This document shows, piece after piece, positions 5,059 to 61,689 of a stretch of 64,000 nucleotides of DNA. The notes under the pieces were generated by a model. The model did no database searches. It worked only from the letters and a program-made list of their open reading frames with translations, and had not been told where the DNA came from. How positions within the stretch are numbered: position 1 is the stretch's first letter; each line of letters starts with the position of its first letter. Source of the DNA: Ignavibacteriota bacterium (GTDB lineage: Bacteria; Bacteroidota; Ignavibacteria; UBA10030); the NCBI GenBank assembly GCA_963727825.1, contig CAVSHO010000009.1, positions 320,001-384,000 of the forward strand, in the 5' to 3' direction. Position numbers and translations under genes: made by a program.

Positions 5059-6026
5059 TAGCGTATCGCCTGTAATAGTAGACCAAGGAGTGCAAGTAAT
5101 ATTAATATTCCCAATCCTGCACCAATAGAAAGAAAGATCGATGATTTATAAAATGGAACTGGTATGGATTCTTCATATAACTTATCAAAAACAGAAAGAT
5201 CAACAGACTCCAGATTATCCAAATCATGTAATAATGCTTTCATGTCCGGATACCGATCATCCGGATTTTTCATTAAGCATTTTGCAACAACTGCCGCAAG
5301 CTGCGGAGTGATTTCCGGGCGCTCTTTATCCAGCCGCGGAATTGTTCCGTGCATTTGTTGTGCCATTACTGCTAGATTATTATCTCCGCTGAATGGAGTA
5401 TGCCCGGAAAGAAGTTCAAAAAATATTACACCAAGAGCATAGAGATCAGTTCGTTTATCGCCGCGCTTTCCTTCCACCTGTTCTGGCGCCATATAATCCG
5501 GAGTTCCGGCTGTGCCGCTCAGGTTCGCATAAGTAACCCTGTATGCTCCCTTTGTGAGGGCAAGTCCAAAGTCTAAAATTATCGGTTGACCACTTTCCGT
5601 AAGGAGAATATTTTCCGGTTTCATATCCCTATGTATAATATTATGTTCATGGCAATGAGCAAGCCCATCGGCAATTTTACGGATGAGCTCAACAGCTTCA
5701 TCTATTGGCATTGGCGCAGACCTGCGAATCAATTCCCGCATTGATTCTCCGGTAACCAATTCCGTGATGAGATATGGAGTGCTGTTATATTTTCCGGAAC
5801 CCAATCCTTTTTGGATGGCAGGATGATTTAATGTACGCATCACTTCCAGCTCACGTTGAAATCGCTCATATTGCGCAGGATCTCCTATCGTCATCCGATC
5901 CGGAACTTTTAACACAACATCCTTACCGCTTATAAGATCGTACGCGCGGTAAATATCACTCATTCCACCCTGAGCTATATGCCCGCGTATCTGAAAATGG
6001 TCAAATTGATCGCCTATTTGCAGCAT
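5058..6026 (-). CDS. Hanks-type Ser/Thr protein kinase with C-terminal transmembrane helix
   Basis: GGMS.IY, VVLK, HRDMKPEN, DFGLA, GTPDYMAPE and DLYALG motifs. Confidence 0.93.
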   Translation of the reverse strand: MLQIGDQFDHFQIRGHIAQGGMSDIYRAYDLISGKDVVLKVPDRMTIGDPAQYERFQRELEVMRTLNHPAIQKGLGSGKYNSTPYLITELVTGESMRELIRRSAPMPIDEAVELIRKIADGLAHCHEHNIIHRDMKPENILLTESGQPIILDFGLALTKGAYRVTYANLSGTAGTPDYMAPEQVEGKRGDKRTDLYALGVIFFELLSGHTPFSGDNNLAVMAQQMHGTIPRLDKERPEITPQLAAVVAKCLMKNPDDRYPDMKALLHDLDNLESVDLSVFDKLYEESIPVPFYKSSIFLSIGAGLGILILLALLGLLLQAIR

Positions 6027-57877: not shown

Positions 57878-58464
57878 TTAAAAGAATAGTACATCTTTTG
57901 GGGTTTCTTTGTCAAATGTCCATGTAATGACATTATTGGCAATGTAATCGCGGATGTTATTTAATTCTTTTTCATTGCGGATAATTCGGTCATAATATCT
58001 TGGCTGCCAAAGCGGTGTATCCCCCGCACCGGTTAAATGCATTTCATTGATTCGTTTTGTAACAGCAGATTTGAATGACCTCACAATTGTCGACAATGAA
58101 CCAGGTACTGGTTTCCTGAATTGTTCCAGTAGTAGGGACGCGGCATGCCGTGTCCCTACTGATTCATTCAATATTAATATTCCATGAATATGGTTCGGCA
58201 GCCGGAGGCCTTAGAATGTTGCCCCGCATCGTGGGGCACCTTCTTTTCATATTCATCCAATACAACATTCGAAAAATGCTCCGGAATTCCTTTCCAACAT
58301 CTATTAATAATATTTCCCTCCTCATTCAAATTCATCTTACCGTCTACAATTGCACCAAACCTGTGTTCATGATTTTGTGCACAAATTGTTACAAAATATT
58401 CTCCCGGCTGGGAATAATCAAATCCTTTAAGGCGAATCGTTTTTCTTTTATGCTTTTCTATCAT
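57878..58464 (-). mobile_element. REP-associated tyrosine transposase (RAYT / Y1 family), disrupted by a short frameshifting insertion
   Basis: RKTIRLKGFDYSQPGEYFVTIC; PNHIHGIL HUH motif in a shifted frame; SL.TIVRSFKS; WQPRYYDRIIRNE...IRDYI.NN; internal palindrome AGTAGGGAC...GTCCCTACT at 58131-58160. Confidence 0.88.
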
Positions 58465-58488
58465 CAACACGATTTCAAAACACAACCG

Positions 58489-58598
58489 CCTCACGCTGGA
58501 AGGGAGTTTCACTCCCGACCTTTGCTTGCTCGGGAGAACATCTCCCTCGCAACTTTGTTCCAAAACACAAAACGCCGATGATGTTTCCAACACCGGCG
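58489..58598. repeat. ~106-bp direct repeat on the other side of the RAYT gene
   Basis: Nearly identical to 57746-57851; ends in the CGCCGATGATGTTTCCAACACCGGCG hairpin. Confidence 0.85.
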
Positions 58599-59991: not shown

Positions 59992-60120
59992 AGCGTTACT
60001 CCTTGTTTATAGAAATTGTACGTTTGACGTTGGCTGTAAAAGATTGTTCCGTCCGACCATTGTGCCATACTCTCCCGAGAGTCAAACTGATGCTCCGGAG
60101 TGATAAGGTAAGCCACTTTA

Positions 60121-60156
60121 AAACACAAACGCCGATGATGTTTCCACCACCGGCGC
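60121..60156 (-). terminator. Terminator-like hairpin of the same repeat family, downstream of the RT gene
   Basis: AAACACAAACGCCGATGATGTTTCCACCACCGGCG, homologous to 56101-56139 and 58561-58598. Confidence 0.7.
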
Positions 60157-60198
60157 ATTATAGTATTAAAAGAAGAAATGCTCTTTCATTTTGTAAAA

Positions 60199-61041
60199 TT
60201 AATCCGTGTCTTTTACCATTCTCTTTAGATCATCAGCCTGTTGAGGATTTACATATGCTATATAGTCAATTTTCCCTTTGATCGATTTATAGCTTCCTTT
60301 TAAGTTCTTTTTGTAGTCAACAATTTCATGTTTCACGGCATCAACATAACGTTGATTAACCCTTAGTTTAGGATATACTCCAATTCCCATTATCTCTCTT
60401 GGAGATTTGTTATTAAAGACCTCAAATTCATCAAGTAGAAATCCATGCTGTCTAAATATTTTTACAAATAATCTTTGAAACCCTGCTGGGTCAAAATCTG
60501 ACCCAATCACTAAATTGTCTGCATACAGACCGACTCGGAACGCCTCTTTTCCCGCCAATCCGTCGAGTCGAATTATTACAGGATTTAAAGTAAGTGCAGC
60601 AATTTTTGGACTTGTTGGAAATCCTTGAGGAAGTTCAAAATCAAAGGTTATTATTCTTGTAATTAGTTTTGCTGCAGGATTATCAAAATTCAAACCCATG
60701 AGTGTTTTTGTCACCATTGCAGGATAGATTGTAGGATAAAAATCATCGACATCCGCTGCAATCAAGAACTTCGACTTTGAAAATTGAGAAAGCATTTTGA
60801 TATGATTACATCCAGGTTGTAAAAAAAGGAATTTATGCAAAGTGAATTGGCTTAAGATCATCTTATTTATTTTGCGCAACAGATCTTTTAATTCCTCGTT
60901 TGGACATGTGATATCTCGATATCCTCCACTCTTCTTTGCCTTCTTCCGCTTTTTCACCATATAAGACAGATTGCGTGCAATAAAAGAAAGATACTCTTCT
61001 CTTTTATTAAGACGATTCGCAATCTCCTGGATTAAGATCAT
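60199..61041 (-). CDS. Divergent retron-like reverse transcriptase (YADN variant)
   Basis: KKSGGYRDI..P..ELK (RT1), DVDDFYPTI (RT3), LPQGFPTSP (RT4), YADNL (RT5), IMGI at the VTG position. ATG at 61041, or TTG at 61053. Confidence 0.88.
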   Translation of the reverse strand: MILIQEIANRLNKREEYLSFIARNLSYMVKKRKKAKKSGGYRDITCPNEELKDLLRKINKMILSQFTLHKFLFLQPGCNHIKMLSQFSKSKFLIAADVDDFYPTIYPAMVTKTLMGLNFDNPAAKLITRIITFDFELPQGFPTSPKIAALTLNPVIIRLDGLAGKEAFRVGLYADNLVIGSDFDPAGFQRLFVKIFRQHGFLLDEFEVFNNKSPREIMGIGVYPKLRVNQRYVDAVKHEIVDYKKNLKGSYKSIKGKIDYIAYVNPQQADDLKRMVKDTD

Positions 61042-61053
61042 TGAGGTGAACAA

Positions 61054-61296
61054 TTAATAAGATTGAATAAGTAGTGTTCGTTGGGGTTCTAAATAAGTTT
61101 TGTGGGAGAAGCTCACGATGATCGAGATTAACTTAGCAATAAATTCTAAAACTCTTAACAAAAAACCCAAAGGTTTTTCATTCCGATTTAAGAATTTAAC
61201 AAACTTACTTTTCTTTCTCGAATATCTATAAAGCTTCTCCCTTCTCCTGATTCGATTATAACATCGAATTAAGCGAAGTACAAGCTTCCTTTTCAT
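61054..61296 (-). CDS. 80-aa basic protein with a C-terminal hydrophobic/amphipathic helix (putative RT-associated effector)
   Basis: Strong Shine-Dalgarno (AGAAAGGAGG) 8 nt before the ATG; abuts the RT frame. Confidence 0.65.
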   Translation of the reverse strand: MKRKLVLRLIRCYNRIRRREKLYRYSRKKSKFVKFLNRNEKPLGFLLRVLEFIAKLISIIVSFSHKTYLEPQRTLLIQSY

Positions 61297-61581
61297 GTTC
61301 TTTTCCTCCTTTCTAATCGTTTAGTGGAACATATCATTATGAATCGATGATTAGTCGCCACAATGCCTGTACTTTCAAAACTTGAAAAAAAACGCATAGA
61401 GCGTTTCGTTTTATCCATGCATTGCACTGTATAAATTTCTGCAATTGCATAATTGTCTAATAAACAGATATATATTCTCCTATTTATTAGAAATTCTCAG
61501 ATTGGTTTGAACACATATACCCAAATCAACCGAGATACGGCTAGTTTCGCCGGGAAAAGAGGCTAACCTTAGAACATGAAA
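61291..61581 (-). ncRNA. Putative structured RT-associated ncRNA or 5' leader (~290 nt)
   Basis: 11-bp terminal inverted repeat TTTCATGTTCT/AGAACATGAAA plus a 9-bp inner helix enclose about six stem-loops; no ORF. Confidence 0.6.
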
Positions 61582-61689
61582 TTTCAAAGAACATCTAACA
61601 ACTAAAACAAAAAACATTTCTTAAAAAATATTATCAAGAAAAACCGTTCGTGTTTCCATCCCACCAAACAACGTCGGGACGTCAGCATA

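Follow-up and report, generated by a model that had tools for sequence, protein, structure and literature searches.

We examined a 64,000-nucleotide stretch of an Ignavibacteriota bacterium genome (NCBI GenBank assembly GCA_963727825.1, contig CAVSHO010000009.1, positions 320,001 to 384,000 of the forward strand; the whole stretch is called the window here), in which a minus-strand gene encodes a retron-type reverse transcriptase (RT) whose motif C reads YADN, not YADD. Within a small and rare clade of retron-type RTs, YADN is fixed in motif C and maintained by selection, so that a whole clade of intact, selected enzymes has asparagine where the account in a published survey calls the second motif C aspartate invariant in all RTs (PMC3394715). 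The RT gene is the last part of a horizontally acquired three-part module of ~1.5 kb, which consists of a leader RNA, a small open reading frame (ORF) and the RT itself. On balance, we lean towards a still-active RT, altered or throttled, which would copy part of the leader into DNA, this complementary DNA (cDNA) then freeing the start of the small ORF on infection; active-site conservation and the interchange of aspartate and asparagine within the clade both point this way. What is new here is a Type VI-like retron family that lacks a helix-turn-helix (HTH) gene and has a conserved YADN motif, together with the recurrence of asparagine at this position among retron-like RTs. Coordinates are window positions, and features lie on the minus strand unless stated otherwise.

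Conservation and recurrence of the motif C asparagine

The RT ORF (60199..61053) comprises 284 codons plus a stop, has no internal stops and probably starts at the ATG at 61041-61039, where its homologues begin. The plus strand at 60514-60525 is attgtctgcata; read from 60525 to 60514 on the minus strand, it gives TAT GCA GAC AAT, encoding Y177 A178 D179 N180. These are the codons named in the original prediction, which was made from the sequence alone and is also borne out in describing the first catalytic aspartate, D101 of the DVDDF motif A, and the ORF as intact. That prediction left two branches. A conserved asparagine would mark a catalytically altered or pseudo-RT; otherwise, the residue would be a recent inactivating mutation or a read error, which an alignment of homologues and an inspection of reads should reveal.

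A word-indexed search recovered nine homologues at 91-42% identity, and motif C (60514..60525) was invariant in their alignment with the window RT, YADN being present in 10/10 sequences. When 1.84 billion cluster representatives were searched exhaustively, ten proteins came back at E <= 1e-30, the next appearing only at 1e-27. Scans of metagenomes and genomes yielded further YADN loci at 71% (L026), 61% (L027) and 37-41% identity (L028-L032 and L001), while L033, at 40% identity to the window RT, has YADD with the codon GAT. In a motif tally of 159 sequences, xxDN was found in all 20 family sequences (18 YADN, one YGDN and one FADN), and 21 of the 22 full-length family members have N180, L033 being the exception. 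The asparagine is encoded by AAT at five loci and by AAC at two, and the ratio of nonsynonymous to synonymous substitution rates (dN/dS) of the RT is 0.09-0.14 over six pairs, with dS saturated.

The site is likewise represented in two sequencing runs. A run X1 contig (depth 243), 96.6% identical with 53 differences in 1581 bases, spans the motif, as does a contig from run X2; among the differences listed (41 of 82), the motif's 12 bases change only at 60520 (T>C), which turns GCA into GCG, a synonymous alanine codon. Since YADN is conserved across the family, neither a read error nor a recent inactivating mutation of one genome can be the origin of the residue. Although GAT is only one base, a single transition, from AAT, asparagine occurs in 21/22 members, which come from independent assemblies, range down to 33% identity and use two codons for it; the contigs of two runs agree at the site except for the synonymous change among the differences listed, and the ORF has no disruption and evolves under purifying selection. 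We assign this explanation a negligible probability.

The history of the residue was traced on a tree of 38 rows from which the N180 column was omitted, rows shorter than 250 aa (P0008, P0018 and P0026) and the duplicates L026 and L027 being excluded. The 22 full-length family members form one clade (bootstrap/SH-aLRT support 100/99), within which L033 (YADD) is sister to P0013 (YADN) with support of 100/100. The approximately unbiased (AU) test rejects a grouping of the 21 asparagine rows without L033 (p 0.00045), this group having been named after the tree was seen. The simplest history suggested by the sequences is thus one aspartate-to-asparagine change at the base of the family, followed by one reversal in L033.

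Asparagine at this position is also recurrent beyond the family. Among 143 retron-like RTs of 230-420 aa placed in a FastTree phylogeny, 26 have it, which takes a minimum of seven changes, at least three of them forced by well-supported branches. Outside the family, nine cluster representatives carry the residue (P0055, P0071, P0077, P0089, P0109, P0129, P0138, P0150 and P0152), with the motif strings FSDN, YVDN, YADN, WIDN, YSDN and WVDN among them. In these nine, the H of the retron motif NAxxH is mostly kept, and an ITG triplet is present in 4/9. One of them, P0055 (FSDN), is the sister of the family with support of 98 in a quick tree, a placement left unresolved in the careful tree. As a separate observation, the RT at L069 (3540-6894) has YGDN and follows directly on genes for Prok-E2_D, Prok-JAB and ThiF (E1-like), so that a ubiquitin-like conjugation cluster is paired with an RT.

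The family itself is rare. Among 185,579 species genomes, a member occurs in one metagenome-assembled genome only, which belongs to another phylum. No member was found in plasmids (best matches at 25-28% identity), in phages (best 24-27%) or in viral contigs (one locus, at 23%), nor in 60 related genomes and 400 sampled genomes of the phylum, where the two other matches were II-A and III-A loci; within its own 96.8%-complete genome, the window RT is the sole match to RVT_1. Full-text literature searches returned nothing relevant on YADN or YxDN-type motifs together with reverse transcriptase. Neither YXDD, YADD, 'catalytic motif', 'catalytic aspartate' nor 'inactive' occurs in the UG/Abi paper, and the SPIRE retron paper lacks YXDD, YADD and 'catalytic'.

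Retron-type identity and the altered active site

By sequence and predicted overall fold, the window protein is a retron-type RT. Residues 40-196 match Pfam RVT_1 at 46.6 bits against a cut-off of 29.6. In PADLOC, the protein matched 39 RT models, led by RT_II-A (118 bits), RT_VI (117) and RT_III-A (110), and RT_VI was the best model for five of the ten family members scanned; the NCBIfam model retron_St85_RT gave 104 bits, under its cut-off of 235. A family profile searched against the PDB aligned with the Ec86 RT (E 1.8e-33; positions 4-291 of 293), placing YADN on YADD, IMG on VTG and region X on NATPH. The AlphaFold2 model is confident (predicted local distance difference test score, pLDDT, 91.5; predicted template modelling score, pTM, 0.83) and shows the usual motif C beta-hairpin (E173-177 and E180-185). 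Among the Foldseek PDB matches listed, the top 17 ranks are all retron RT chains (Ec86, Eco2/Ec67, Eco7, retron I-A, Ec78, Ec83 and Eco8; TMq 0.63-0.81), and the RTs of group II introns, those of diversity-generating retroelements (DGR), and those of DRT9 and Abi-P2 rank below them.

Two sequence features set the family apart from this background. NAxxH and VTG are described as retron-diagnostic RT motifs, the former thought necessary for initiation and the latter for msr recognition (Mestre et al. 2020). Their loss, asserted in the original prediction, proved real and extends to all 22 members. At region X (60781..60795, M87-F91), which the alignment columns and the profile alignment to Ec86 identify as the place of NAxxH, the window reads MLSQF; N-A occurs in 0/22 members and the H in 9/22. 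At region Y (60385..60393, I221-M222-G223), the place of VTG, the window reads IMG; V-T-G occurs in 0/22, the family having IMG or IMN with the G kept in 13/22. One might then picture an active but non-classical enzyme with another priming mode or product, for instance a cDNA that is short or lacks a branch, or synthesis independent of a template, as some defence RTs perform it. The deviation of all three retron-diagnostic features (NAxxH, VTG and the second aspartate) would fit such an enzyme, as would the family's scores of 116-161 bits across all PADLOC retron RT models, where neighbouring RTs reach up to 245, and the leader RNA described below, which no Rfam family fits (four matches, all far under the gathering score). 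Against this stand the full-length fold and sequence, which are nearest to retron RTs before group II intron, DGR, DRT9 or Abi-P2 RTs, and a gene order and RNA logic like those of Type VI retrons; we consider this explanation improbable.

The remainder of the active site is strictly retained. At overall identities of 33-40%, the finger residues implicated in deoxynucleoside triphosphate (dNTP) binding, K40, R46, I48 and P51, are invariant in 22/22 members. The same holds for the catalytic D101 and the steric-gate F105 of motif A (60739..60753), for P107 and T136, for L141 to S148, including Q143-G144, of motif B (LPQGFPTSP, residues 141-149, 60607..60633), and for Y177, A178 and D179. Such retention of all polymerase residues would not be expected of a protein kept solely as an RNA binder.

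The biochemistry of other right-hand polymerases gives this pattern a plausible meaning. Their common metal ligands are described as the motif A aspartate and the first motif C aspartate, whereas the second motif C aspartate is said to bind a third ion close by and sometimes metal A; when it is mutated, activity falls or the metal requirement shifts without inactivation of the enzyme, and Mn2+ rescues second-aspartate mutants of HIV RT and poliovirus polymerase (PMC3394715, PMC4634563). The same sources list natural active asparagine forms, ADN in birnaviruses and GDN in Mononegavirales, and report that changing ADN to GDD raises activity (PMC3394715, PMC4634563). By analogy, the aspartate-to-asparagine change in the family most probably reduces activity or tunes it differently, for instance in metal-ion preference, without abolishing it.

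A catalytically dead RT, retained as an RNA-binding scaffold, sensor or antitoxin that keeps the leader RNA or the small protein repressed and makes no cDNA, has more in its favour than the non-classical enzyme. The second aspartate is described as invariant, and its mutation is reported to cut strongly or abolish activity in several polymerases; NAxxH and VTG are lost in 22/22 members. The excerpted text on Retron-Sen3 describes a toxin-antitoxin pair that is independent of the RT and the non-coding RNA, an RT-HTH association independent of catalysis, and six tested Type VI retrons for which multicopy single-stranded DNA (msDNA) was not detected in E. coli (10.64898/2026.04.27.721009); in Retron-Vpa2, a dead RT is reported as not toxic (10.1101/2025.10.22.683967). 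A scaffold, however, needs none of F105, K40, R46, Q143, D101 and D179, yet all are invariant in 22/22; a nested family member, L033, has YADD; asparagine is still able to coordinate metal in the natural ADN/GDN polymerases, as these are described; and other xxDN retron-like lineages retain the H of NAxxH and ITG/VTG-like triplets. The invariance of the other active-site residues, combined with the interchange of aspartate and asparagine within the clade, favours a still-active RT over a dead scaffold, which we regard as possible but rather unlikely. Of the original prediction for a conserved asparagine, the conservation therefore stands and catalytic alteration is the best reading of it, whereas a pseudo-RT serving as a mere RNA-binding sensor or antitoxin is not favoured, given the residues invariant in 22/22, the nested YADD and the natural active asparagine polymerases.

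Leader RNA, small ORF and surrounding locus

Directly before the RT lies a small ORF (61054..61296) encoding 80 aa with a net charge of +18. Its N-terminal part is basic, residues 49-63 make up a hydrophobic helix, and the RT frame follows immediately on its TAA stop. Homologues stand ahead of the RT at L026, L027, L028, L029, L032 and L033, so that seven loci, the window included, carry an ORF of this kind (80-110 aa), and a profile search recovered 13 such proteins, all unnamed and with no Pfam domain. The ORF evolves with a dN/dS of 0.21-0.46, its hydrophobic 15-mer has a Kyte-Doolittle (KD) value of 1.6-2.5 across loci, and its structural model consists of three helices (pLDDT 79.7, pTM 0.34). 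In 7/7 loci, the RT either begins right at the end of the small ORF or overlaps it (by 0-41 nt), and it has no clear Shine-Dalgarno (SD) sequence of its own. In the window (61054-61056) and L026 (3796-3798), the two ORFs share a frame with a single TAA between them, whereas they lie in different frames at L027, L028, L029, L032 and L033; a read-through fusion is therefore not a family feature. The ORF upstream of the RT gave no HTH match in the window, L028, L032 or L033.

The small ORF is preceded by a conserved, structured leader (61297..61600), a candidate for a retron non-coding RNA or the 5' part of a 'hybrid RNA'. Over ~300 nt, its mean column identity among the window, L026 and L027 is 80%, which is above that of the proteins, and blocks are shared with distant loci. 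The fold of the window leader together with the small ORF is far more stable than expected (z = -5.24, with 0/100 shuffles folding equally well). The SD and start codon of the small ORF find their pairing partners in two elements that lie side by side 250-330 nt upstream, as seen in the minimum-energy folds for the window, L026, L027, L028 and L029. In the window, the SD GAAAGGAGG (61305-61313) and the start-codon stretch AGAACAUGAAA (61291-61301), together at 61291..61313, are partnered by an anti-SD CCUCUUUUC (61554-61562) and an anti-AUG UUUCAUGUUCU (61571-61581) at 61554..61581, from which they lie ~260-285 nt downstream. In the minimum-energy fold of L032, only the SD half pairs with the corresponding element and the AUG stretch pairs ~470 nt upstream; the local anti-AUG pairing was seen there by RNAduplex. 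L033 has the same two-part helix with the start codon correctly placed, so that the anti-AUG and anti-SD helix is present in 7/7 family loci.

The whole-leader MAFFT alignment was out of register at the anti-AUG and anti-SD elements for the distant loci; per-locus duplexes with a cross-locus control were therefore used instead. The anti-AUG half covaries with the codons after the AUG, duplexes within a locus averaging -12.7 kcal/mol against -6.6 kcal/mol for 34 cross-subgroup pairs, with one outlier among the latter (the window element with the L028 AUG, -13.6 kcal/mol). Under a mononucleotide-shuffle control, the observed duplex was stronger than the shuffle mean in 7/7 loci, although in 6/7 (all except L029) the best shuffle was at least as strong as the observed duplex, and L032 lay within one standard deviation of the mean. 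Two local leader hairpins show compensatory changes in 5/10 predicted pairs, and a CGGC-loop-GCCG hairpin directly 3' of the anti-SD (61538..61552) has compensatory changes in two relatives. A further hairpin, AAACGC..GCGUUU followed by a U-run (61390..61406), stands ~90 nt before the small ORF; the terminator scan flagged it on the plus strand only, and the aligned leaders have the hairpin followed by a UUUCAAG-like sequence.

At its 5' end, the conserved leader carries the motif GUUCUUUG (61585..61592), of which GTTCTTT is invariant in 7/7 aligned family leaders while the following base varies. GTTCTTT is located at 61592 in the window and lies 263-342 nt upstream of the small ORF in six related loci. 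On the whole-leader alignment, RNAalifold also pairs GUUCUUU (61585-61592) with the SD (61305-61313) over eight pairs, with no covariation, and the two upstream partners of the SD, the anti-SD and GUUCUUU, may represent alternative states. An a1/a2-like pairing, GAUCGUUC/GAACGAUC, was seen in L028-L033 and is weak in the subclade of the window; it was not adopted, and neither an a1/a2 pair nor a branching G could be assigned in the leader.

The module stands out from its surroundings as a low-GC island (GC 0.33-0.37 over 60000-61600 against 0.42-0.50 on either side), with the RT downstream of a class II ribonucleotide reductase gene. A weak sigma-70-like promoter match (9/12; 61630..61658) lies just upstream of the leader; as eight such sites were found where 6.4 are expected, this match is no evidence on its own. 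The scan also marked a terminator-like hairpin 43 nt past the RT stop (60129..60156). The sequence at 60120-60155, which overlaps this RT-downstream hairpin, is a 36-bp GC-rich repeat that recurs with divergent flanks in many otherwise unrelated contigs of runs X1-X3 and looks like a repetitive extragenic palindromic (REP)-type element doubling as a terminator. Elsewhere in the window, at 57878-58593 on the minus strand, lies an IS200-like/REP-associated tyrosine transposase gene apparently split in two ORFs, of which the C-terminal one (97 aa) matches Y1_Tnp (24.5 bits) and the upstream one (139 aa) has no match; L026 carries an intact Y1_Tnp gene of 204 aa right after the RT. At L030 and L031, a 305-aa lipoprotein-like ORF (5091-6008; Exo_endo_phos 24 bits, cut-off 24.5) takes the place of the leader and small ORF; the YADN RT is intact at both, and only the last ~40 nt before it are still L029-like.

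Comparison with known retrons and polymerases

Type VI retrons offer the closest model for this arrangement. In Retron-Vpa2, a hybrid RNA is described as holding both the template and a translationally repressed small protein (SP), whose translation needs msDNA, while the HTH protein restrains reverse transcription (Zhang et al. 2025, 10.1101/2025.10.22.683967). Across Type VI retrons, the ribosome-binding site and AUG of the SP are reported as hidden in the RNA, with msDNA derepressing translation (10.1101/2025.10.22.683967; 10.64898/2026.04.27.721009). The Retron-Sen3 paper gives a conserved RNA within ~280 nt of the SP start, the SP ribosome-binding site in its basal stem, and an HTH gene in 78% of Type VI retrons (Garcia-Rodriguez et al. 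2026, 10.64898/2026.04.27.721009). Transferred to the YADN family, the leader helix would lock the SD and AUG of the small ORF and keep the small protein untranslated. The RT, its metal ligands D101 and D179 and its dNTP-binding residues being intact, would still act as a DNA polymerase on the leader. As in Retron-Vpa2, the leader-templated cDNA might then open the helix so that the small, presumably toxic protein is made during phage infection.

Several findings weigh against this account. The absence of NAxxH and VTG in 22/22 members means that canonical 2'-OH-primed msDNA synthesis may not occur, and in the presence of Mg2+, HIV-1 RT and other polymerases are reported to lose most or all activity when the second aspartate is changed. 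Translation of the RT is possibly coupled to the repressed small ORF, which leaves the supply of RT before activation unexplained. The assignment to the Type VI RT lineage (clade 3) is itself blurred, as PADLOC scores tie among VI, II-A and III-A; the small ORF family shows no profile similarity to Type VI SPs in hhalign (probability 0.8%); and a covariance model of the family's 5' leader found only its seven training loci and L001, which has the L032 sequence, with hits at 0/26 RT_VI-matching loci. The family also lacks a Cro/C1 HTH gene, whereas the Type VI reference loci match HTH_3 in 6/6.

The missing HTH protein invites a bolder proposal, in which the asparagine is an evolved throttle or conditional switch: it would hold basal cDNA too low to open the helix that hides the toxin start, and activity and toxin translation would rise only under a condition of the infected cell, such as a metal-ion change or a trigger protein. 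On a wider view, retron-like RTs could do without the second aspartate and would have replaced it again and again (26/143, at least three origins), xxDN RTs forming a natural low-activity class. We offer this as speculation that is unlikely to hold in full. The idea of the asparagine as a brake replacing the missing HTH is attractive and is weakened by two loci, L095 (FIDD) and L099 (YVDD). Both resemble the family in having a small basic/hydrophobic ORF directly before an RT of 273-278 aa, no HTH gene and GTTCTTTGA upstream; they differ from it in keeping xxDD, each being sister to an HTH-bearing locus and lying outside the YADN clade. Because these HTH-less loci keep xxDD, the loss of the HTH gene does not require the aspartate-to-asparagine change. 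Within the Type VI lineage, L095 and L099 lost the HTH gene independently.

Among other known systems, Retron-Ec86 (Eco1) is a type II-A retron with a nucleoside deoxyribosyltransferase-like effector, and no such gene lies beside the window RT. Its RT (PDB 7v9u/7v9x) is nevertheless a full-length homologue and the best structural match (TMq 0.78-0.79), with YADD, NAxxH (NATPH) and VTG where the window RT has YADN, MLSQF and IMG. Birnavirus VP1 (ADN) and Mononegavirales L (GDN) are, like the window RT, right-hand polymerases with asparagine in place of the second motif C aspartate, and the gain reported on changing birnavirus ADN to GDD can be read as a built-in throttle. These are viral RNA-dependent RNA polymerases with no evolutionary or functional link to retrons, so that the analogy is one of chemistry only.

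With an RT_VI model, six SP-HTH-RT loci were recovered from 401 genomes of the phylum, 6/6 of them matching HTH_3 at 49-59 bits, along with two HTH-less SP-RT loci. A quick tree with III-A and II-A RTs as the root, in which Types IV and V are unlabelled, places the YADN family in a clade with SP-HTH-RT loci (support 97), apart from the III-A and II-A RTs. In 7/8 loci of Type VI architecture, GTTCTTT (part of GTTCTTTGA) sits upstream of the small ORF by 266-343 nt, the 8-mer GTTCTTTG having a base rate of one per 27.5 kb, and GTTCTTTGA is common to the family and to 7/8 of the SP-HTH-RT/SP-RT loci. The family departs from Type VI retrons in lacking NAxxH and VTG and in having YADN where YADD is given for Vpa2 and DD at 193-194 for Sen3. 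It shares with Vpa2 and Sen3 a small retron-type RT of ~280 aa in tightly packed or overlapping genes, and with Type VI retrons generally a structured, conserved RNA that lies within ~280-340 nt on the upstream side of a gene for a small helical protein, the pairing of the SP ribosome-binding site and AUG within that RNA, and a hydrophobic C-terminal helix in the small protein. Judged by sequence, the layout resembles a Type VI retron minus the HTH protein, which makes the family Type VI-like. If the YADN RT is active, it would reveal how far nature re-tunes an RT active site and would provide naturally attenuated or metal-switched RTs for study and retron engineering; if inactive, it would clearly exemplify a retron RT retained for something other than catalysis. 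Either outcome bears on how Type VI retrons hold cDNA synthesis low before infection.

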